Assembly (NCBI GenBank): GCA_013815785.1
Contig: JACDFO010000002.1
Coordinates: 1 to 47,231 of the forward strand
Origin: Candidatus Saccharimonadota bacterium
Lineage (GTDB): Bacteria; Patescibacteriota; Saccharimonadia; Saccharimonadales; JACDFO01
DNA: 47,231 nucleotides
Direction: 5' to 3'
A program made the translations under genes and the position numbers. Positions 33,884 through 47,231 of the stretch are shown here, piece by piece. Numbering within the stretch: position 1 is the first letter of the stretch; every line of letters begins with the position of its first letter. The notes beneath the pieces were generated by a model. That model ran no database searches. It saw only the letters and a program-made list of their open reading frames with translations, and was not told where the DNA came from.

Positions 33884-34533
33884 TCACAGTTGGCGTATTT
33901 GATTCAGGAGTAGGAGGTAAATCAGTCGTGAATGCGATTGAGGCCGCCCTGCCGGATATAAAAATCGTGTATGCGGAAGATAAAGAAAATGTACCGTATG
34001 GTACAAAAAATCCAGATGAATTATATAGGTTAGTATTACCAATACTTAACATGTTAAGTAAGCAGGGATGCGATGTAATTATCATCGCCTGTAACACAGT
34101 TACGACAACCATCATTGAGCGTTTGCGTTTAGAACTCCCCTTGCCTCTCATCGGCATAGAGCCGATGGTTAAGCCAGCCGCCGAAATGTCAAAAACTGGA
34201 ATCATCGCAATGTGTGCGACACCAACTACGCTACAAAGTGCGCGTTATGCTTGGCTTAAGGAAAACTATGCAAAAAACATCCAAGTATTAGAACCTGATT
34301 GCAGTGATTGGGCATCGCTCATCGAAACTGATCAACTTGATCACGAAATAATCAAAAGTCGCATAGAAGAGGTGTGTAAAAAAGGCGCAGATGCGATTGT
34401 CTTAGGCTGTACGCACTACCACTGGATAGAACATGACATTCAAATGATTGCCGATGAATACGGTGCTATTGTGATACAACCGGAGAAACCGATCATCGAA
34501 CAGCTTAAGAAAGTTCTGTCACAGCTTTCTTAA
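33880..34533 (+). CDS. murI: Glutamate racemase
   Basis: The start MITVGVFDSGVGG overlaps the upstream stop (ATGA). It has both catalytic Cys motifs, IIACNT and LGCTHY. Confidence 0.9.
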   Translation: MITVGVFDSGVGGKSVVNAIEAALPDIKIVYAEDKENVPYGTKNPDELYRLVLPILNMLSKQGCDVIIIACNTVTTTIIERLRLELPLPLIGIEPMVKPAAEMSKTGIIAMCATPTTLQSARYAWLKENYAKNIQVLEPDCSDWASLIETDQLDHEIIKSRIEEVCKKGADAIVLGCTHYHWIEHDIQMIADEYGAIVIQPEKPIIEQLKKVLSQLS

Positions 34534-35980
34534 ATTCTTCACCCCTGTGTTTATAATTTTTGAATAAACCGAAGCTTGCACATGCGGTAGATAGTAGTAC
34601 AACATCACCGTTTTGTGCTTTCGTATGTGCTGCATTTACGATTTCGGCCATTGTGGAGCCACCGTCGGTAATACTATCATAACCTTGAGTTCGCAAGGCC
34701 TCTGCTATAGCTGGGCCTGTGGCACCGATACTTATGACATGACGAACGTGCTGGGTAGCTACTGCAACAGCTAGCTTTTCGTACTTAGCTGCTTTGTCTG
34801 AACCGCCGAGAATGACTACTTTTGGTTCTATGAACGCTTCAATCGCCACGATAGCCGTCTCGGGAGTGGTGCCGAAGGAGTCATCGTAGTATTTGATACC
34901 GTCAAGTTCTCGTACAAGCTCTAGACGATGTTCTAGGCCCGTAAAGCTGGTCAGAACATCGCGTATTGCGTCTACATCCTTGGTAACCTGCCAAACCGCC
35001 GTAACGGCTGCGCAGACATTTTGCCAATTGTGCTTTCCAAGCAGCTTAAGTTCGTCAGTTTTACAAATTATTTGATTGCCGATAACTATTTCACTGTTTA
35101 CTACCTTTGCACCTGGAGCTTCCATGTATGGTATTTTGATACCGACAGACGTGCTTGCAACGCTAACAGAGTTATCGTTGGCAGCATAGTAAATAGCAAT
35201 GTCATTTTCTTTTTGATTAATAAAAAGCTGCTGTTTAGCGGCTACATACTCTTCAAAAGCCAGTGCTTGTGCTTGCTCATTTTCATAGCTAGATGAGGAG
35301 CTAGCAGTTGTAGCAGGTGCTTCAAGCACCTGCTGAGGCGTACCCGTAGGTACGTCGAGGGAGTGAATGGAGTTGCCTGATGCAGCTGATTGCTGATCAG
35401 ACCTATGATAATGGGCGGGTTCAAGTGCTTGATGCCAATCCATATGCTCGGGCTCAACCATTAAGCAAACGGCGATATGCGGCGAAAATCTTAGATCGAT
35501 GAGCTGAAAGTTAGCTAACTCCAATATTACCCAATCTCCGGGCAAAATATTGTTTTTAAGCAGTTCTAAAGGGGGGATGCCGATATTACCTCCAAGGTGT
35601 ACGCGTTTGCCAGCGGTTTCTAACATCTTTGCAATCAGCGTACTGGTTGTGCCTTTGCCTTTAGTGCCAGTGACTCCAATAATATTTTTGCTGGGACAAA
35701 CTTTAAAAAATTCATTAGTATTAGACCAAACTTTATCAAGAATTTGCGAATTATTCGCGTTAGCATTCATAATATTTTTGGGATGCAGAGCAGGTGTCCT
35801 AATAATCAATTCAAATCGATCTAAGTTCTTTAAATAGTCTACTCCCAGCTGTGAACTAGCATTGCCGGGAATAGTAATATTTTCATCAGAATCACAAACG
35901 GTGAGCTCGTTTTCAGGAGAATCCCAATACCTATACGAGCTTTGTCCTTGGCCAGCATATCCTAATATAGCAATCTTCAT
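34505..35980 (-). CDS. murD: UDP-N-acetylmuramoylalanine--D-glutamate ligase (MurD) with a low-complexity insertion
   Basis: 491 aa. GVTGTKGKGTTSTLIAKML P-loop, GNIGIP and the C-terminal Mur ligase domain. The ~58-aa insert QALEPAHYHRSDQQSAASGNS...SSSSSYENEQAQA follows HMDWH. Confidence 0.9.
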   Translation of the reverse strand: MKIAILGYAGQGQSSYRYWDSPENELTVCDSDENITIPGNASSQLGVDYLKNLDRFELIIRTPALHPKNIMNANANNSQILDKVWSNTNEFFKVCPSKNIIGVTGTKGKGTTSTLIAKMLETAGKRVHLGGNIGIPPLELLKNNILPGDWVILELANFQLIDLRFSPHIAVCLMVEPEHMDWHQALEPAHYHRSDQQSAASGNSIHSLDVPTGTPQQVLEAPATTASSSSSYENEQAQALAFEEYVAAKQQLFINQKENDIAIYYAANDNSVSVASTSVGIKIPYMEAPGAKVVNSEIVIGNQIICKTDELKLLGKHNWQNVCAAVTAVWQVTKDVDAIRDVLTSFTGLEHRLELVRELDGIKYYDDSFGTTPETAIVAIEAFIEPKVVILGGSDKAAKYEKLAVAVATQHVRHVISIGATGPAIAEALRTQGYDSITDGGSTMAEIVNAAHTKAQNGDVVLLSTACASFGLFKNYKHRGEEFKKAVTELS

Positions 35981-35998: not shown

Positions 35999-36370
35999 CT
36001 AGGTAGTAAGTTCGGTTTTAACCATTTCAGCAACCTGCCGTGGAGTCATTTCTGCCTTGACTATAAAACGTCGTACACCGTTCTCGCGCAGGGTTGTAGG
36101 TGCTTCTTGTTCGCCCATATTGGTCAAGATAATAACCTTAGTATCCTTACCCCAATCTGTTTTACGCAGTTCTATCAGCATTTCATCGCCAGACATTTCG
36201 GGCATCATAAGATCTAACAAAATAATATCTGGCTGCATTTTTTCGACCAGCTCTAGGCCTAGCTTACCATTTTCTGCTGTCTCTACTTCGAAGCCTTCCG
36301 CCTCAAACTTAATGCGGTACATCTGGGAAATTGCTTGGTCGTCTTCGATAATCGCAACTTTAGTGGCCAT
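35999..36370 (-). CDS. Single-domain response regulator (receiver only)
   Basis: 123 aa. VAIIEDD, ILLDLMMPEMSG, VIILTN..K. Confidence 0.9.
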   Translation of the reverse strand: MATKVAIIEDDQAISQMYRIKFEAEGFEVETAENGKLGLELVEKMQPDIILLDLMMPEMSGDEMLIELRKTDWGKDTKVIILTNMGEQEAPTTLRENGVRRFIVKAEMTPRQVAEMVKTELTT

Positions 36371-36394: not shown

Positions 36395-36763
36395 TTACGC
36401 CGCTAGGGCTTCTTGCACTACTACTACAACCTGGGACGGTGTGTAATTAGCTTTGACCATATATCGTAAAATACCCAATTCGTATAAACCATCAGGCGCT
36501 TCGTATTCACTGATATTTGTCAGAATTATCACTTTCGTATCTTTGCCGTTCTCAGTTTTACGGTAGTTGGCTAATACTTCACTTCCGGTCATCTGGGGAA
36601 GCATAAGATCCAGAAGCACAAGGTCAAACTTGGTGGTATAGATCATATCCAGCCCTGCTTGACCATCATAAGCCACAATGCATTCATACCCAGCAGACTC
36701 AAGTTTAATCTTGTACATGTCAGCAAGTGAAATGTCATCTTCTATAATAGCTATCTTAGGCAT
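36395..36763 (-). CDS. Single-domain response regulator (receiver only)
   Basis: Start at MPKIAIIEDD (36763). VLLDLMLPQMTG, VIILTN..K. It sits in tandem with the previous receiver. Confidence 0.88.
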   Translation of the reverse strand: MPKIAIIEDDISLADMYKIKLESAGYECIVAYDGQAGLDMIYTTKFDLVLLDLMLPQMTGSEVLANYRKTENGKDTKVIILTNISEYEAPDGLYELGILRYMVKANYTPSQVVVVVQEALAA

Positions 36764-36830
36764 TATTAATCTGATTATATACTTAAAACGTAAGAGAAGA
36801 AACTCCACCACAACCATGGGTGTATAAATA

Positions 36831-36860
36831 TTGACAATTAGTCATACTTATTGTTTTAAT
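36831..36860 (+). promoter_or_regulatory. Sigma70-like promoter (TTGACA, 18 nt, TTTAAT) predicting a leaderless mRNA
   Basis: TTGACA at 36831-36836 and TTTAAT at 36855-36860. The ATG at 36867 lies 7 nt after the -10 box and has no SD upstream. Confidence 0.45.
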
Positions 36861-36866
36861 ATCTAT

Positions 36867-39044
36867 ATGGAAAAAGACGAAGAATTTCCGAGGTATCAAA
36901 TACCAGGGGCGCCGGGAGAGATTGCGGCAAGCTTTCATACCCCAGAGGGAATCTTAGAAGTCGATTCATACCAAGATGAAATATTTGCAATTCTAAGACT
37001 AGCTGATGGAACTAAGAGTAGGTCCAATATTATCAAGAGCGCGGTGGAATCAGGGCTTGATGAAGAATTTACTTCTATGGTTATGGATGACTTAGAAAGG
37101 CTAGGTGTCATAGGTGACAGCAGGCAAATATCTAAACTTTTCCATATTTATACTAAAAATCCCGCTAGGTATAGCCATGATTTAAGCAACGAAGAAGTTT
37201 ATGAAATAACGTCACGACCTTATGAGGTTGAAAAAGAAGGCCAGCGCCATCAATTTTCACGTACTAGTACAGACCTTACTTCGTTATTAAGTAAACGCGA
37301 ATCAGTCAGAGGTTTTGAAAGTAGAGCTGTAGAATTAGATAAAATAAGTGAAATACTTGATGCTGCGTACTCTTTTAACATAACACCAGTACCGTCGGCG
37401 GGAGGTCTATACCCATTAAAATTATATTTACTGATCAAAGACGGGAATGAGCTACCGGCGGGATATTATCAATATGACCCCACTGATTCAGCCTTAATTT
37501 GTTTCAACGACAATTTTTCCGAAAAAAGGCTACAGTACATTTTTAACTCGGATTCACTCGTACATAACGCACAGTTACTATTTGTGATAGGCGCAGATAT
37601 GGATAGGCATTCAGAAAAATATGCTGATAGAGGCTACAGATATACTTTACTAGAAGCAGGTCATGTCGCTCAAAACATTCATTTAGCATGCACAACTCTA
37701 GATCTCGGTTCACTAGAATATGGCGGCTTCAATGATGATTTACTTCACTCCGAGTTAAACCTTGATGAGCGCATACAACCACTAATTACCATCGGTGCTG
37801 GATATAAAAATACTTTTGAAATTCAGGATTCTATATCTACTCTAGCATTGTTGGAGAAAGAACTAGTGGGTAAAAATAAACCGATAGACGAAGTATCAAT
37901 AAATTTTCCTCCAAACTCAACTAGTCCATCTTATTATCAAGCCAGCGCACACTATGTTATTCCAAATGTTAGTTATCCCGATACACATGACGATAGATAT
38001 GCTTCGGGAGCAGCGACCTCTATAGAACTTGCTAAAATTAAAGCGATAGCAGAAGCATATGAGAGATATGTAAGCGGTAAGATAAGGTTTGATATTAAAG
38101 ATAGTGCGACCAATTTACGGGGCAAATGGCTTAATCCAAATTTAATACGACCGTTAAGTTCAAGTCAGATTAATTTTATGTCCGGAATCGAACAATTCCA
38201 GGAAGATTTGTTACTGGAATGGGTAAAGGGAAGTGAACTTCATAGTAACGAAGATATTTTTGTTCCAATTGACTTAGTTTATTATCCGTTAAACGAAAAA
38301 GTTCTTCGCAGGAATCCCATCGCTCTTGCTGACTCATCCGGTGTTGCGGCGCATGTTGATAGAAATATTGCCATAGAAAAAGGATTGCTGGAACTCATAG
38401 AAAGGGATGCAATTATGAGAAATTGGTTTAAGAAAGCGCCACTCCCAAAACTTTCACAAGAATTACTAGATGAAGATATAAGCAGCCGTGTTCTAAATTT
38501 GGAAAAAAATGGCTACATTGTCGATGTACTAGATATGACCGAGCCTAACGCAAAAGCAGCCGTAATAAATGTAGTTATCAGAAACAAGGAAATGAATTAT
38601 CCGTACTTTGTTAATGGTGCTTCAGCAGCACTTAATTATCAGGATGCAATAGATAAAGCTCTTGAAGAGGCAGAACTTGGTTTGAAGTACGCACTAATCG
38701 GTGAAAAAAATGACGCAAAATCGAAAAATCACATACATTCACCTGCTGATCATGGGAATTACTACTTGCATCCAGAAAACGCAGTAAATATTTCTTGGCT
38801 ATGGAGCGGAGAAATAAAGTATCATCTACAGAATATTGACGATAGTAAAAAACTAATTGATAACTATAATCCTATAGTGATAAACTTGGAGTTACAGAGT
38901 GCTCCTTTAAATGTTGTCCGGATTATAGAGATATCACTGGTACCAATTAGCTTTGGTCTCGGTGCCGAGTATTACACGCATCCATTCAGCGGTATTTCAA
39001 ATCCGCAACAATACCAGCCCTATATTCCGCACTATTTCGCTTAA
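36867..39044 (+). CDS. Fusion protein: N-terminal winged-helix (RRE-like) region, SagB-type FMN dehydrogenase, YcaO cyclodehydratase (TOMM/azole RiPP maturase)
   Basis: The SagB/nitroreductase part includes SVRGF, PSAGGLYPLKLYLL and YRYTLLEAGHVAQN. The YcaO part includes ASGAATSIELAKIKAIAEAYERY, SSGVAAHVDRNIAIEKGLLELIERDA and a Pro-containing C-terminus YQPYIPHYFA. The ORF track begins at a TTG (36831) that is really the -35 box. Confidence 0.85.
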   Translation: MEKDEEFPRYQIPGAPGEIAASFHTPEGILEVDSYQDEIFAILRLADGTKSRSNIIKSAVESGLDEEFTSMVMDDLERLGVIGDSRQISKLFHIYTKNPARYSHDLSNEEVYEITSRPYEVEKEGQRHQFSRTSTDLTSLLSKRESVRGFESRAVELDKISEILDAAYSFNITPVPSAGGLYPLKLYLLIKDGNELPAGYYQYDPTDSALICFNDNFSEKRLQYIFNSDSLVHNAQLLFVIGADMDRHSEKYADRGYRYTLLEAGHVAQNIHLACTTLDLGSLEYGGFNDDLLHSELNLDERIQPLITIGAGYKNTFEIQDSISTLALLEKELVGKNKPIDEVSINFPPNSTSPSYYQASAHYVIPNVSYPDTHDDRYASGAATSIELAKIKAIAEAYERYVSGKIRFDIKDSATNLRGKWLNPNLIRPLSSSQINFMSGIEQFQEDLLLEWVKGSELHSNEDIFVPIDLVYYPLNEKVLRRNPIALADSSGVAAHVDRNIAIEKGLLELIERDAIMRNWFKKAPLPKLSQELLDEDISSRVLNLEKNGYIVDVLDMTEPNAKAAVINVVIRNKEMNYPYFVNGASAALNYQDAIDKALEEAELGLKYALIGEKNDAKSKNHIHSPADHGNYYLHPENAVNISWLWSGEIKYHLQNIDDSKKLIDNYNPIVINLELQSAPLNVVRIIEISLVPISFGLGAEYYTHPFSGISNPQQYQPYIPHYFA

Positions 39045-39110
39045 ACTGCCAGGCGGTTTAAGCTTGAGATAAATTTTAATCATCAACTACTTCAGGAGGA
39101 GGTGATAAAA

Positions 39111-39245
39111 ATGAAGGTACTCTCTGCAGTGTTGAAGCCATACGAAGCTACCCCCAAGGGTAGCTTCGAAAACTGCAACAACGGTTGTAGTGGCAGTGGA
39201 TCCTGCTCTCGTTGCTCAGGCAACTACGGCAACCAGTCCCACTAG
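39111..39245 (+). CDS. 44-aa RiPP precursor peptide candidate (Cys/Ser/Gly/Asn-rich core)
   Basis: Absent from the ORF track (under 60 aa). SD AGGAGGAGGTGA lies 6 nt before the ATG. Translation: MKVLSAVLKPYEATPKGSFENCNNGCSGSGSCSRCSGNYGNQSH*. It sits 66 nt downstream of the YcaO fusion gene. Confidence 0.75.
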   Translation: MKVLSAVLKPYEATPKGSFENCNNGCSGSGSCSRCSGNYGNQSH

Positions 39246-39258
39246 CACAACCCACACC

Positions 39259-39327
39259 AGCCCTGGCATATCAATTGTGTGATGATGTACGCGCGTCATC
39301 ATCAATACAATCGATTATGCCAGGGCT
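39259..39327. terminator. Long hairpin between the convergent precursor and protease genes
   Basis: AGCCCTGGCATA (39259-39270) pairs with TATGCCAGGGCT (39316-39327). An inner GATGATG/CATCATC stem is present. Confidence 0.6.
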
Positions 39328-39329
39328 CT

Positions 39330-39941
39330 TTACTTGAGAAGTTTTTTAGCTGATGTAGAAACTAATTTTGAGGCTGGTTTTTTTAGTGTATTACTAGCAG
39401 ACTTTGCAAGCTGATAACCATAAGAATAGCCAAACCATCTAGGTACGTCGTTATTACCTGTTATAAACCACTCTATATGGTTATATTTTTTACTATTTAA
39501 TTCTTTATTAGCCATTCCAATTTGATCTTTGGTTATTCTAACGGTTGCATATATCGGAGTTTCACCACTACACTCTTCTTCAAACAAAGTTGCAAGCCCT
39601 TCGGTTAATAACGCCTCCTTTAAGGTTTCGCCATAACCTGGGTTGCGCCATCTTACTGCATGGTGTATTTCGTGTAACATACCCATGTAAAGATTTTTTT
39701 CTAGAATTTTCTTAGATGGATCGATGTTTATGTAAACAACATTACTGGAAGGAGTATAACCTCCCACTCCAATTTCTGGGATTGTGCTAGACGGAGCATC
39801 GATTATAAGAATGTCTATTTTGTCAGCTCCTAAAACGCCAAAAGCAGTATCGGATGCTTTCTTAAAAGCATTTTCAATTACGTTTATATGCTTGTCCATT
39901 GACCCGGAAGCATTTGCTATGTGCAACTTTATACTGTTCAT
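39330..39941 (-). CDS. DUF2268-like putative Zn-dependent protease (HExxH)
   Basis: 203 aa. MLHEIHHAVRW contains HExxH, and LLTEGLATLFEE follows downstream, as in predicted DUF2268 metalloproteases. Confidence 0.65.
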   Translation of the reverse strand: MNSIKLHIANASGSMDKHINVIENAFKKASDTAFGVLGADKIDILIIDAPSSTIPEIGVGGYTPSSNVVYINIDPSKKILEKNLYMGMLHEIHHAVRWRNPGYGETLKEALLTEGLATLFEEECSGETPIYATVRITKDQIGMANKELNSKKYNHIEWFITGNNDVPRWFGYSYGYQLAKSASNTLKKPASKLVSTSAKKLLK

Positions 39942-44958: not shown

Positions 44959-45060
44959 ATCCTAACCCTTGGGTGGTTGGAAGTAATCCATAGCGGATTG
45001 ATTAACAGAGGTGTAACAGATGGCAGGATAACCGGCAACGGTATTATTACTGCTTTTTTT
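44959..45060 (+). ncRNA. Candidate ~100-nt small RNA or orphan cis-regulatory leader
   Basis: Bounded by the promoter above and an intrinsic terminator: a GCAG...ACCG-GCAA-CGGT...CTGC hairpin (45023-45053) plus T7 (45054-60). It has an internal AATCC-ATAGC-GGATT hairpin. No credible ORF lies inside or immediately downstream. Confidence 0.4.
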
Positions 45061-45158
45061 ACTTCTGAAAACAATCGGTGAACCCAGGTGGTGACGGGTA
45101 CATTAACAAGTCGAATCATTTTGAAACATATTTTTTTGTAACAGGGAATCTACCCCTT

Positions 45159-45224
45159 GTGCAGACCAGCTAGTATTAGACAGCTAGTAACCCCTAGCGA
45201 CTCCTAGTATTAGACGGTCTGCAC
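45159..45224. repeat. 9-bp inverted repeat enclosing two 12-nt direct repeats (CTAGTATTAGAC)
   Basis: GTGCAGACC (45159-45167) pairs with GGTCTGCAC (45216-45224). CTAGTATTAGAC occurs at 45170-45181 and 45204-45215, 34 nt apart, with a central GCTAG/CTAGC palindrome. Confidence 0.6.
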
Positions 45225-45360
45225 ATGGTTGTAGCGTTGTGAGTAATAGATTGAGCTTTATCGCTCTCTGTTGGCTCCAGAAGCTCCCTGGTGCGGAAAG
45301 ACGCAATTCAAACTACAACTACAAAACTTTTGTGAAACCGCAAAGGTCATTTTGTTCCTT

Positions 45361-45412
45361 TTCAGAACAGCGTCTAACACACGCAAATTCGTGTGCAGAG
45401 CGCTGTTCTGAA
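45361..45412. repeat. Long two-tier hairpin
   Basis: TTCAGAACAGCG pairs with CGCTGTTCTGAA (12 bp), with an inner CACACG/CGTGTG stem (6 bp). There is no flanking T-run. Confidence 0.55.
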
Positions 45413-45539
45413 CCCCTACCTAGGCAAAGATATAAGAGTAACCCATTAACCTGGGTGTACTCGAAAAGAGCGATTCCGCTCTACAGCCAGGCCCACCATA
45501 GTCTGCGAATCTTCTGCCAAAAGCAGGGGAGGAGAAAAA

Positions 45540-46409
45540 ATGACCACCGAACACCTGGATATCCCCGAAGAGGAGCTCGACAAGATCCTCGGAGGAGCAG
45601 GCAAGGCTGCGCGCAGCGACAACGACGACGCCCTCATCAAGGACGTGGCCGGCATCGATGCGCAGATCGGGAACATCCTCTACGGCGCGTCCGTCCTCAC
45701 CCAGCGCAAGCTGGACCGGAAGGCGAAGGTCGAAGAGGAGATCCGTGATCGGCAGCACCAGCGCGAGCAGATCCGCAACCGGTTCCAGCACATGCTGAGC
45801 ACCGTCACGGACGAGCCCGCCCTGGCTCCCGCACCCGTCGCCCCCGTGGCGCTCGTGTCGGATCCGGTCAACCCGCCGTCGGCCCCCCAGCCGTCGGTTT
45901 CGTCCAGTGGTCCCGTGGTGGACGAGCCCGACGAGGATGAACTCCTCGAAGGCCTGTACACCCGTGACGAGCTCATGGAGCTGTCCGATTCGGACCTCCA
46001 GCGGCTCGCCAGCGAGTACGGGATCGCCACCGTGGTCACCGACGCAACTCGCGTCATCGTGATCGCCACGATCATCGTCCAGCAGTCGGCGTACTGTCAG
46101 TGTGAAGGCATCGAGGATCCCAACGGGACTTCGACGACTCGTGTCACGGTCATCGACCGCGTTCGCGACTCCCGGCACAACCCCCGGAGCTGGAACATCT
46201 GGCAGTGGGTCGGAGCGATCATCGGCGCCCTCATCGGCATCGTGATCTACCGGGTCACCAACGATTGGGAGCAGGACATCGAGGGCACCTGGAACAGGGT
46301 GTTCGACATGTTGCTGTTCATCGCCCTCGTGGGCCTCGGCTTCTTCGGCGGCGCCATCATCGGTGCGGCTGTGGAGGACAGGCAGGAGAACTTGCGCTCG
46401 CGCTCGTGA
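45540..46409 (+). CDS. High-GC hypothetical protein: double-glycine-type leader, Pro/Ala-rich linker, Rho_N/SAP-like helix pair, two C-terminal TMs
   Basis: 289 aa, SD GGGGAGGAG. N-terminus MTTEHLDIPEEELDKILGG, then LYTRDELMELSDSDLQRLASEYGI, and the TMs WVGAIIGALIGIVIY and LLFIALVGLGFFGGAIIGAAV. Third codon positions are strongly G/C. Confidence 0.7.
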   Translation: MTTEHLDIPEEELDKILGGAGKAARSDNDDALIKDVAGIDAQIGNILYGASVLTQRKLDRKAKVEEEIRDRQHQREQIRNRFQHMLSTVTDEPALAPAPVAPVALVSDPVNPPSAPQPSVSSSGPVVDEPDEDELLEGLYTRDELMELSDSDLQRLASEYGIATVVTDATRVIVIATIIVQQSAYCQCEGIEDPNGTSTTRVTVIDRVRDSRHNPRSWNIWQWVGAIIGALIGIVIYRVTNDWEQDIEGTWNRVFDMLLFIALVGLGFFGGAIIGAAVEDRQENLRSRS

Positions 46410-46546
46410 TCCGTTCCACGTCGAAAGGTTTGGCTATTACCCTGTGCTCACGCACAAATCGGCCCAAGTTGTCCGTTATCTTGACTGAGGCTTGCCTTAG
46501 TGAAAACGGAAGTCCCATTCCGCTTGCCCACCTTTGGAGGTGAACA

Positions 46547-47231
46547 TGAGCAAGCACACCCGCAGTTCCGGCATCAAGGCTTCGGCCGTGTTGCTAGCAG
46601 TACTCATCGCCGTCGGCCTCCTGGTCGGCAGCGGAGAGGTGTCCAACGCCAGTGATCGCACGGATGAGTCGGCAACGACACCCACCATGCCCACGGCGGA
46701 AGAAGATGCGCGTGAGTGCCCCGCAACCTGGATCATCGTTCAGGTCGATCACGAGGACAGCAACCGTTGGTTCGCCGACGGTGTCCAAGAGATCGAGGAA
46801 GCATCCACGCCTGAGGAAGCAAGGGAAGCAGCTCGTACCTGGCTCAGCCTAGTGCGTCGTGACCCCCAGCTCCTCAAGGGTGCAGCATCGTACTTCCTTG
46901 CCGGCCGTCAGGTCGACGCATCCACCTTGGTGGATGGGGAGTGCGCCAGTGAGGATGCCGAATCGCTGACAGCCGAAATCGAGCTGGCCATCGCGCAAGC
47001 GAAGGTTACGCCCGAAGAAGCTCCGGTAGATGGCACCAACTCTGGTACCGATGCTGAGGGAGACGTGACGTCTGCCAACCAGGCAGGAATCACAGGTGAT
47101 CGTGCAGCGATCAAGGTCGTGTTGAAGGACGGAACAACCGTCTGGATCATGAGCCGCTGCGGTAACCCCGTCGTTCAGGGACCGGCCCCCGTGCCCCCCG
47201 GACCGACGGATAACCCGCCGCCGCCGCCCCC
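46547..47231 (+). CDS. High-GC secreted or membrane-anchored hypothetical protein (partial; runs off the window end)
   Basis: Not in the ORF track because it has no stop. SD GGAGGTG lies 4 nt before the ATG. Translation begins MSKHTRSSGIKASAVLLAVLIAVGLLVGSGEVSNA... and ends in the Pro-rich GPAPVPPGPTDNPPPPP. Confidence 0.65.

Follow-up and report, generated by a model that had tools for sequence, protein, structure and literature searches.

Can a single polypeptide install azoles in a peptide without the E1-like partner on which azoline-forming YcaO enzymes are generally taught to depend? The question is raised by a gene in a contig of Candidatus Saccharimonadota bacterium (GCA_013815785.1, JACDFO010000002.1), of which a stretch of 47,231 nucleotides, positions 1 to 47,231, was analysed and is called here the window. 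The first-pass annotation, made from the sequence alone, described a protein with a PqqD-like winged helix in its first ~110 residues, then a SagB-type dehydrogenase and a YcaO, with intact ATP-site residues, a Pro-containing C-terminus and no C-protein or ThiF-like gene in the window. It considered this architecture unusual, because the commonly described fusion joins the partner with YcaO, the dehydrogenase being encoded separately. We confirmed that the gene and its fused architecture are real. The interpretation was also supported, with two qualifications: the architecture is unusual only relative to characterised systems, and the C-terminus is not the canonical Pro-rich one. The precursor gene and the conserved protease gene next to the fusion gene had been overlooked, and these turn a domain curiosity into a complete three-gene RiPP cluster (Table 1).

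Table 1 Features of the fusion gene and its surroundings, in window coordinates.
Position	Strand	Feature	Size and details
36867..39044	+	Gene for the tri-domain enzyme: RRE, SagB-type dehydrogenase, YcaO cyclodehydratase	725 aa
36867..37151	+	Predicted N-terminal RRE-fold winged helix	Residues ~1-95; short beta-strands at 8-10, 14-16, 21-25 and 28-32, then helices 36-45, 52-61 and 66-79
37266..37811	+	SagB/McbC-type FMN dehydrogenase domain	Residues ~134-315; invariant K251-Y252; R144/R148 and PSAGGLYP motifs
37824..39044	+	YcaO domain	Residues ~320-725; conserved C-terminal PHYFA
39094..39101	+	Shine-Dalgarno-like GGAGGAGG	9 nt upstream of the precursor ATG
39111..39245	+	Precursor peptide gene, MKVLSAVLKPYEATPKGSFENCNNGCSGSGSCSRCSGNYGNQSH	44 aa; short leader with a VLxxVLKPY motif; 4 Cys and 7 Ser from S18 to the C-terminus
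39260..39326		Long hairpin between the convergent precursor and protease genes, probably a bidirectional terminator	MFE -41.3 kcal/mol
39330..39941	-	DUF2268-family HExxH zinc metalloprotease, candidate leader peptidase	203 aa
40081..40977	+	EamA/DMT-family transporter, only tentatively part of the system as a possible exporter

A TTG at position 36831 would add 12 residues to the enzyme, but its homologues start at the ATG. Pfam detected a nitroreductase domain (PF00881, residues 142-310, E 1.5e-24) and a YcaO domain (PF02624, residues 381-643, E 4.5e-39). In NCBIfam, the SagB model TIGR03605 scored 120 bits, above its cutoff of 78. The SagD model TIGR03604 scored 144.5 bits, below its cutoff of 219.25, while the D proteins of four classical loci (L051, L057, L062 and L077 of our genome scan) scored 264-306 bits. 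The fusion is not an assembly artefact, as at least 215 homologues from independent assemblies have a length of about 700-745 aa and carry both domains. The architecture is not rare. At least 215 clusters at 90% identity carry it, mostly from Saccharibacteria and other Patescibacteria, including oral Nanosyncoccus. A homologue labeled “Streptomyces caniscabiei” (P0108) lies on a contig with 53% GC and housekeeping genes of a small genome, and does not show the family in Streptomyces.

The catalytic residues were examined in an alignment of 45 sequences. In the dehydrogenase, profile alignment placed the Lys-Tyr pair of McbC, K201-Y202, whose role is given in PMC6395948, on the invariant K251-Y252. 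In the YcaO domain, both Mg/ATP motifs, AEAYER (E396/E399/R400) and LELIERD (E509/E512/R513), were invariant. They aligned with the equivalent motifs of LynD, TruD and MusD, and with those of E. coli YcaO (E199/E202/R203). Loss of these residues in a proper alignment had been named in advance as a result that would refute the reading. The position equivalent to E. coli YcaO S71 is a Lys (K392) in this family. The family ends in a conserved P721-H722-[YF]-F-A725, Pro-containing but different from the canonical Pro-rich PxPxP that azoline-forming YcaOs insert into the active site.

Pfam and NCBIfam searches with the whole protein found no RRE or PqqD domain, and the RRE assignment therefore rests on predicted structure. 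An AF2 model of residues 1-120 had a pLDDT of 87, rising to 91-98 over residues 11-80. It showed the beta-sheet plus three-helix winged-helix fold of RREs. Its Foldseek hits in the PDB were almost all RRE domains: PbtF (8t19), TruD (4bs9), TbiB1 (5v1v), PqqD (5sxy), ThcOx (5lq4), McbB (6gri), MccB and CteB. The hits were consistent, with probabilities of 0.9-1.0, but the E-values were modest (8e-3 to 0.1, and 8e-3 to 0.6 for the set of top hits). At the sequence level, the window protein gave only a HTH_47 hit at E 0.13. Among 39 family members, the hits were weak, six matching Lant_dehydr_N (best 3.9e-7) and six PqqD (best 0.055), with others to HTH_47 and PaaA-like_N. A PDB profile search with the N-terminal alignment was topped by designed helical repeat proteins and RecX, which we judged to be spurious low-complexity helix matches, and PqqD appeared only with E-values of 0.19-1.7.

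A possibility to consider is that this domain is vestigial or purely structural, substrate selection coming from the core peptide or the catalytic domains themselves. RREs fused to dehydrogenases in cyanobactin, LAP and thiopeptide clusters “may also be vestigial” (PMC7470986), ThcOx carries two RRE copies fused to its oxidase, and the window protein has no significant PqqD Pfam hit. However, the domain is the only RRE-like element in the conserved gene triad, it is retained in essentially all full-length homologues and it is modeled with high confidence. Further, the precursors carry short, conserved, beta-strand-like leader motifs, which suit RRE binding. We consider a vestigial domain unlikely.

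An AF2 model of the full-length protein (pLDDT 88.9, pTM 0.87) was compact and left no room for a further domain. Its top Foldseek hits were LynD (1e-21), TruD, MusD, McbD, McbC and ThcOx. By sequence, one of the best PDB matches of the YcaO domain was MJ1094, an archaeal YcaO that thioamidates McrA. Together with the SagD score below the cutoff, this leaves room for other backbone chemistry, thioamidation or amidine formation, or for modification of a protein rather than of the adjacent small peptide. We regard this as very unlikely. TfuA was not among the families recurring in 150 neighboring proteins, and no other conserved partner of this kind was nearby. The YcaO is covalently fused to a SagB domain of the azoline-oxidising type with an intact Lys-Tyr pair, the adjacent peptides are Cys/Ser-rich, TIGR03604 scored twice as high as the thioamidation model TIGR03266, and the best structural match is the azoline-forming LynD.

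Is there a partner nearby? The protein had no hit to TIGR03603, TIGR03882 or TIGR03693, and no E1-like or Ocin-ThiF-like ORF was found in the window or within about 10 kb of 45 related loci. A profile HMM of the E1-like C domain, built from classical loci, hit five independent control loci and none of the 3852 ORFs in the 46 fused-family loci, a set that includes the whole window. NCBIfam detected TIGR03882 and TIGR03603 in the classical loci, which served as a positive control. The loci L049-L080 of the genome scan looked at first like further fusions lacking the RRE, but most of them are classical clusters with separate or CD-fused genes containing such C domains, and were used as positive controls instead. 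L041 (Reyranella) is a true SagB-YcaO fusion. Besides the protease there was no second conserved neighbor, and no family occurred in more than 4 of the 150 neighboring proteins.

These results cover only 47 kb of this genome and about 10 kb flanks of the other loci, and a scaffold encoded elsewhere could still act in trans, the N-terminal RRE being then redundant or auxiliary. In characterised azoline-forming systems an E1-like or Ocin-ThiF-like protein is present and potentiates YcaO (PMC4603692; PMC10634744). On the other hand, Saccharibacteria genomes are very small, and RiPP genes are normally clustered. A partner acting in trans thus appears unlikely on present evidence.

The precursor gene lies 66 nt downstream of the fusion gene, and its product has a short leader (LxVxxxPY) and a Cys/Ser/Gly-rich core. 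Homologous small ORFs, with Cys/Ser/Gly-rich products, were found next to the fusion gene in about 38 of 46 loci. They have two conserved leader types, and the group-A cores are 43% Gly, 16% Ser and 13% Cys. Many group-A precursors (for example GNCGGAGCGSGCGGGCGG...) look McbA-like. The DUF2268 protease (PF10026, E 4e-22) was present in 37 of 46 loci, at a median of 168 nt from the fusion gene. Its H90/E91/H94 and E114/G115 were 97-100% conserved. The closest relatives, with 53-54% identical enzymes, keep the leader and core motifs and the order fusion, precursor, convergent DUF2268, the synteny with the protease being seen in loci L084 and L085. The EamA transporter (PF00892, E 6.7e-22) was not conserved next to the fusion gene in other loci, and no conserved transporter family was found among the neighbors. 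For the hairpin, the z-score was -6.75 and none of 200 shuffled sequences folded as well. A promoter and terminator consensus scan around the cluster gave nothing above the shuffled expectation, and Rfam found only tRNAs.

Together, these results suggest a minimal biosynthetic cluster for a linear azol(in)e-containing peptide (LAP/TOMM), probably microcin B17-like, in which one RRE in cis serves both catalytic domains. We give this reading a probability of about two in three. In this view, the precursor is bound through its leader (motif h-x-L-x-V-x-x-x-P-Y), which probably adds a beta-strand to the sheet of the RRE. The tethered core then reaches the YcaO domain, which would use ATP and Mg2+ to cyclodehydrate Cys and Ser to thiazolines and oxazolines. 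The SagB-type FMN domain of the same polypeptide would oxidise these rings to azoles through its Lys-Tyr pair, and the DUF2268 metalloprotease would remove the leader. The enzyme probably dimerises through its nitroreductase-fold domain, which would reproduce the C2D2 core of microcin B17 synthetase, with a cis RRE replacing the E1-like McbB scaffold. Our analysis establishes the domain identities, the conserved catalytic residues, the RRE fold as a predicted structure, the conserved gene triad, the precursor family and the absence of an E1-like domain nearby. Without experimental support for any step, leader binding by the RRE, activity without a partner, dimerisation, azole formation in the product, the role of the protease and the target of the product are inferred.

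Microcin B17 synthetase McbBCD of E. coli (6gos/6gri) likewise has a YcaO cyclodehydratase (McbD), a SagB-type FMN dehydrogenase (McbC) with a catalytic Lys-Tyr pair, an RRE and a Gly-rich core with Cys and Ser. Its RRE binds the leader as an added beta-strand, as is inferred for the window protein. However, Mcb is made of three separate proteins in a B4C2D2 octamer, with the RRE on the E1-like McbB. In the window protein everything is in one chain, with the RRE N-terminal to the dehydrogenase and no E1-like adenylation-fold domain. The leader is much shorter (about 12-20 aa vs 26), and the protease is DUF2268 rather than TldD/E. The cyanobactin heterocyclases LynD/TruD and MusD, which are RRE-E1-like-YcaO fusions, gave the best full-length structural and profile matches for the YcaO domain and the RRE, and are also single-chain enzymes carrying their own RRE. 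They contain the E1-like domain 2, which forms the peptide clamp and the dimer interface, and have no dehydrogenase. Here, a nitroreductase-fold domain occupies the position between the RRE and YcaO.

In the cyanobactin oxidase ThcOx/CyaGox (RRE-RRE-SagB) and the RRE-dehydrogenase fusions noted by RRE-Finder, an RRE fold is fused directly N-terminal to a SagB-type FMN oxidase. Those enzymes have no YcaO domain and work alongside a separate RRE-E1-YcaO heterocyclase. The standalone YcaOs of bottromycin biosynthesis form azolines or amidines without an E1-like or Ocin-ThiF-like partner (PMC7136475), but use a follower peptide, have no fused RRE or dehydrogenase, and act on unrelated precursors. 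LAP clusters with YcaO, nitroreductase, peptidase and precursor were reported in CPR genomes, 89 of them with the nitroreductase next to YcaO (Sharrar et al. 2020, PMC7298704). The example described there has separate YcaO and nitroreductase genes and an 84-aa precursor, and the fusion, the RRE, the missing E1-like partner and the DUF2268 protease were not described. An unfused relative found here, locus L083, may represent that state, with an RRE-SagB protein of 332 aa, a YcaO of 540 aa ending in LPHPFT and a C39-like peptidase. The N-terminal ~110 aa of this YcaO resembled an RRE only weakly (3 bits against the family RRE profile, weak HTH_Crp_2 and TrmB hits), and we do not claim one. Literature searches found no description of the fused architecture, of DUF2268 in RiPPs or of YcaO systems in Saccharibacteria, although an earlier mention of SagB-YcaO fusions cannot be excluded.

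A bolder reading, which we consider about as likely as not, is that of a self-sufficient single-polypeptide azole synthetase, in which a bare RRE, with no E1-like or Ocin-ThiF-like scaffold, recruits the precursor for both active sites and DUF2268, a previously uncharacterised protease family, is the dedicated leader peptidase. Ultra-small episymbiotic Saccharibacteria, including human oral Nanosyncoccus, would then widely produce microcin B17-like polyazole peptides from a three-gene cluster of about 3 kb. This would define a new LAP subclass and the smallest known complete azole-installing machinery.

Azoline-forming YcaOs are generally taught to depend on a partner that both binds the leader and strongly potentiates catalysis. 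A large natural family that keeps only the RRE and fuses it with both catalytic domains would show that the E1-like scaffold is dispensable. It would also give a compact, one-gene azole-installing biocatalyst with a very short leader tag, attractive for peptide engineering. The finding gives the DUF2268 family a testable function. On this reading, it also assigns a conserved and probably antibacterial RiPP pathway, with Gly/Cys-rich cores resembling the gyrase poison microcin B17, to Saccharibacteria and other CPR bacteria, which have tiny genomes and few known natural products, and include members of the human oral microbiome.

The fusion gene was an uninterrupted ORF encoding 725 aa. A TTG located 36 nt upstream could extend it, but the homologues begin at the ATG. 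Pfam recognized a nitroreductase domain (PF00881) at residues 142-310 (E 1.5e-24) and a YcaO domain (PF02624) at residues 381-643 (E 4.5e-39). From the NCBIfam models, the SagB peptide dehydrogenase (TIGR03605) scored above its cutoff (120 vs 78 bits), while the SagD cyclodehydratase (TIGR03604) was the best YcaO match, but below its cutoff (144.5 vs 219 bits). No C-protein or Ocin-ThiF model matched. The identical protein is annotated in NCBI as a YcaO-like family protein. The fusion is not an artefact: at least 215 homologues from independent assemblies were about 700-745 aa long, and the listed ones carried both Pfam domains. The observation made in the first-pass annotation, that of a dehydrogenase fused N-terminal to a YcaO without a visible E1-like partner gene, is confirmed.

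The other genes in the window were housekeeping genes: recA, recX, tsaE, RNase Y, glyA, a murA-like gene, sortases, PAS histidine kinases and six tRNAs. A MurD-like Mur ligase carried a low-complexity insertion of ~50 residues (…SDQQSAASGNSIHSLDVPTGTPQQVLEAPATTASSSSSYENEQAQA…) after the middle-domain match. At the end of the window, the base composition jumped to about 58% GC, against about 38-46% in the rest, and the ORFs there had no Pfam hit. One of them starts with MTTEHLDIPEEELDKILGGAG, which resembles a double-glycine bacteriocin-type leader. This region could be foreign DNA or a chimeric contig end.

An alignment of 45 sequences, with 32-54% identity to the query, was collinear from the first residue to the last. 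Invariant or near-invariant were R144, R148 and the PSAGGLYP motif; K251-Y252; E396, E399 and R400 (AEAYER); S490 and G492 (SSGVAA); E509, E512 and R513 (LELIERD); and the C-terminal P721-H722-x-x-A725. In a profile-versus-PDB alignment, K201-Y202 of McbC fell exactly on K251-Y252. This pair is described as the catalytic base system for azoline oxidation in the microcin B17 synthetase (PMC6395948). The two ExxER motifs of the YcaO domain aligned with the corresponding motifs of LynD, TruD and MusD. The Mg/ATP residues of E. coli YcaO are reportedly S71, E75, E78, R79, N187, E199, E202 and R203 (Dunbar et al. 2014), and the K-12 gene encodes these residue types at these positions. The family profile aligned E509/E512/R513 to E199/E202/R203, whereas the position equivalent to S71 is a Lys (K392) in this family. 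Loss of the ATP-site residues on proper alignment, which had been named beforehand as a ground for refuting the reading, was therefore not found, in agreement with the first-pass remark that these residues appear intact.

At the sequence level, the first ~120 residues gave only weak signals. The window protein hit HTH_47 with an E-value of 0.13. From 39 family members, six hit the LanB N-terminal model, which contains the NisB-type RRE (best 3.9e-7), six hit PqqD (best 0.055) and one hit PaaA-like_N. An AlphaFold2 model built on the 39-sequence alignment was confident (mean pLDDT 87, and 91-98 over residues 11-80) and showed beta-strands followed by three helices. Foldseek searches of this model against the PDB returned almost purely RiPP recognition elements: the PbtF RRE bound to its leader (8t19), TruD domain 1, TbiB1 with leader, PqqD, ThcOx, McbB, the MccB peptide clamp and CteB. 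The probabilities were 0.9-1.0, although the E-values were modest, between 8e-3 and 0.6. We consider the predicted RRE fold, proposed in the first-pass annotation as a PqqD-type winged helix, well supported, whereas leader binding is inferred. The full-length model was confident and compact (pLDDT 88.9, pTM 0.87). The RRE (~1-95), a short helical linker, the nitroreductase fold (~134-315) and the YcaO (~320-725) accounted for the whole chain, leaving no room for a cryptic E1-like domain. Its best structural matches were LynD (1e-21), TruD and MusD, followed by the archaeal YcaOs, BmdC, McbD, McbC and ThcOx.

The genomic surroundings revealed a potential precursor and a potential protease, which were not seen in the first-pass annotation. 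Sixty-six nucleotides after the stop codon of the fusion gene, and 9 nt after GGAGGAGG, an ATG opens a 44-codon ORF encoding MKVLSAVLKPYEATPKGSFENCNNGCSGSGSCSRCSGNYGNQSH. It is followed by a long hairpin (-41 kcal/mol, z = -6.75), located between the precursor gene and a convergent gene. The latter encodes a DUF2268 “predicted Zn-dependent protease” of 203 aa (PF10026, E 4e-22), with an HEIHH motif. Immediately upstream of the fusion gene, and divergent from it, there were two receiver-only response regulator genes. Histidine kinase and response regulator genes were also found near the fusion in three related loci (L013, L034 and L035), which, together with the PAS histidine kinases elsewhere in the window, may point to regulation of the cluster.

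Positions of the features described in the window and in related loci
Sequence	Position	Strand	Feature
Window	34505-35980	-	MurD-like Mur ligase with low-complexity insertion
Window	35999-36370	-	Receiver-only response regulator
Window	36395-36817	-	Receiver-only response regulator
Window	36867-39044	+	Fusion gene
Window	39111-39245		Precursor ORF
Window	39260-39326		Hairpin
Window	39330-39941	-	DUF2268 predicted protease
Window	45000-47231		Region of about 58% GC
Window	45540-46409		ORF with a start resembling a double-glycine leader
L006	14150-15298		Radical SAM/SPASM peptide-maturase-like gene
L017	5574-5756	+	Gly/Cys-rich precursor gene
L017	8797-9039	-	Gly/Cys-rich precursor gene
L018	2409-3515		Radical SAM/SPASM peptide-maturase-like gene
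L048	20233-21228		Radical SAM/SPASM peptide-maturase-like gene
L083	3190-7248		Unfused relative of the system

We retrieved 80 related loci from species-representative genomes, and about 45 of them contained full-length fusions. Most were from Saccharibacteria, including the oral Nanosyncoccus and TM7 HOT-351. Others were from Patescibacteria, and a few from bins labelled Gammaproteobacteria, Bdellovibrionales or Rhodocyclales. The Reyranella locus (L041) also carried a fusion. A homologue attributed to Streptomyces (P0108, on the 957,675 bp contig JARAUW010000001.1 of assembly GCA_033792395.1, labelled Streptomyces caniscabiei) was found in DNA of 53% GC, flanked by housekeeping genes (ligA, eno, bipA). 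This is not Streptomyces-like and looks like a co-assembled small-genome organism, possibly an epibiont or a contaminant.

Clustering of all neighbouring ORFs from the 45 loci plus the window revealed exactly one conserved neighbour, the DUF2268 protease. It was present in 37 of the 46 loci, at a median distance of 168 nt from the fusion gene, and its H90/E91/H94 and E114/G115 were 97-100% conserved. About 38 of the 46 loci also had, next to the fusion gene, a small ORF with a Gly/Cys/Ser-rich C-terminal half. Group A comprised 22 curated examples, and further near-identical copies brought it to 26 loci. Its leader motif is (K)-x-L-x-V-x-x-x-P-Y, as in MKKLLDVKRTPY... or MSVLKVTVSEY..., and its cores are 43% Gly, 16% Ser and 13% Cys. 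One example, GNCGGAGCGSGCGGGCGGGGGSCGGGSGCNGGGGGGCGGGGK, strongly recalls McbA. Group B comprised 12 loci, with enzymes 26-28% identical to that of the window and a KKFSWxV leader motif. In many of the group-B loci (L028-L054) the precursor lies beyond the protease gene, on the opposite strand. The two closest relatives, with enzymes 53-54% identical to that of the window, kept the gene order fusion, precursor, convergent DUF2268, and their precursors were clearly homologous (MLKLLSATKRPYEAKQKSSASNCNNGCGNGGGSCGRCSGNCSR and MSLLSVTLQPYEGLQKGATNAGGNSNNGCGNGGGSCGRSSGNCSG). One Saccharimonadales genome (contig JBOHNX010000001.1, 556 kb) carried two paralogous fusion loci (L002 and L004), each with its own, different precursor. 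L004 had two tandem DUF2268 genes, the second of which has lost the HExxH motif (KELFS). In L017, two distinct Gly/Cys-rich precursor genes flanked a single fusion gene. In three loci (L006, L018 and L048), radical SAM/SPASM peptide-maturase-like genes, with hits to GrrM/OscB, DynA-type and anSME-type models, were found a few kb from the fusion gene. They may be extra tailoring enzymes or belong to separate RiPP clusters.

To assess if a partner protein is really missing, we scanned against Pfam and NCBIfam 150 neighbouring proteins, found within 3 kb of the fusion gene in the 46 loci. No family recurred in more than 4 of them, and none of the recurring families was ThiF, E1-like, Ocin-ThiF or TfuA. 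The same NCBIfam library readily found TIGR03882 and TIGR03603 in classical TOMM loci returned by the genome scan, namely L051, L057 and L077 (CD fusions) and L062 (separate C, D and B). Further, an HMM built from the E1-like C domains of seven classical loci hit five further classical loci not used to build it (E 1e-33 to 5e-62). At E <= 1, it hit none of the 3852 stop-to-stop ORFs of at least 60 aa from the 46 fused-family loci, including the entire 47-kb window. This shows that no conserved E1-like association exists locally. Because these searches covered the loci and not the rest of each genome, a partner encoded elsewhere and acting in trans remains possible.

A profile of the N-terminal domain, searched against 1.84 billion representative proteins, found 368 proteins at E <= 1e-3 and 214 at E <= 1e-10. 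Most were 700-745 aa long, which is the fused form, and a subset was about 310-340 aa, which fits unfused RRE-SagB proteins. One such locus (L083) had an RRE-SagB protein of 332 aa, a C39-like peptidase in place of DUF2268, and a separate YcaO of 540 aa, without an E1-like domain and ending in LPHPFT. The N-terminal ~110-aa extension of this YcaO, which is uncharacterised, showed only weak winged-helix signals. This suggests that the fusion derives from a system that already lacked a C protein. The 36-aa ORF after the RRE-SagB gene duplicates the C-terminus of an 83-aa ORF upstream and is not Cys/Ser-rich.

In the literature we could read, all the characterised architectures summarised there contain an E1-like or Ocin-ThiF-like domain (TruD/LynD, HcaDF, McbBCD, SulB-G and TclIJN), the recognised exceptions being the “standalone” bottromycin YcaOs. 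RREs fused to dehydrogenases are known, for example in ThcOx and in 14 cases from RRE-Finder, but they are regarded as possibly vestigial. LAP clusters with adjacent YcaO and nitroreductase genes have been noted in CPR genomes (PMC7298704). We found no description of the RRE-SagB-YcaO fusion, of its precursor family, or of DUF2268 as a RiPP protease, in a literature search that did not reach key reviews.

The analysis establishes the conserved catalytic residues, the predicted fold and the gene triad, while the steps of the pathway are inferred by analogy with McbBCD, LynD and TclI, in which the leader adds a strand to the RRE sheet (PMC6395948, PMC10634744). In this view, the short leader would bind the RRE in cis, the YcaO would use ATP to cyclodehydrate Cys and Ser of the Gly-rich core, the fused FMN domain would oxidise the azolines to azoles, and DUF2268 would remove the leader. 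Nitroreductase-fold enzymes are generally known to be obligate dimers, and the enzyme would therefore probably form a dimer resembling the C2D2 core of the microcin B17 synthetase. A single RRE serving both a cyclodehydratase and a dehydrogenase has a precedent in TclI, which presents TclE alternately to TclJ and TclN (PMC10634744). There, however, the RRE sits on an Ocin-ThiF-like protein, and TclJ carries an E1-like domain.

The interpretation given in the first-pass annotation is supported, and is extended here to a conserved three-gene cluster. We estimate the probability of the overall mechanism at about 0.66. That the RRE is functional and that no partner in trans is needed is only somewhat more likely than not. 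The system is inferred to work like a LAP/TOMM synthetase and has most of the features expected of one, differing in the absence of a fused or nearby partner domain and in a YcaO score below the curated SagD cutoff, and hence we regard it as a variant of these synthetases and not as categorically new. With higher confidence, we consider it likely that the cluster is an azole-forming RiPP pathway acting on the adjacent peptide.
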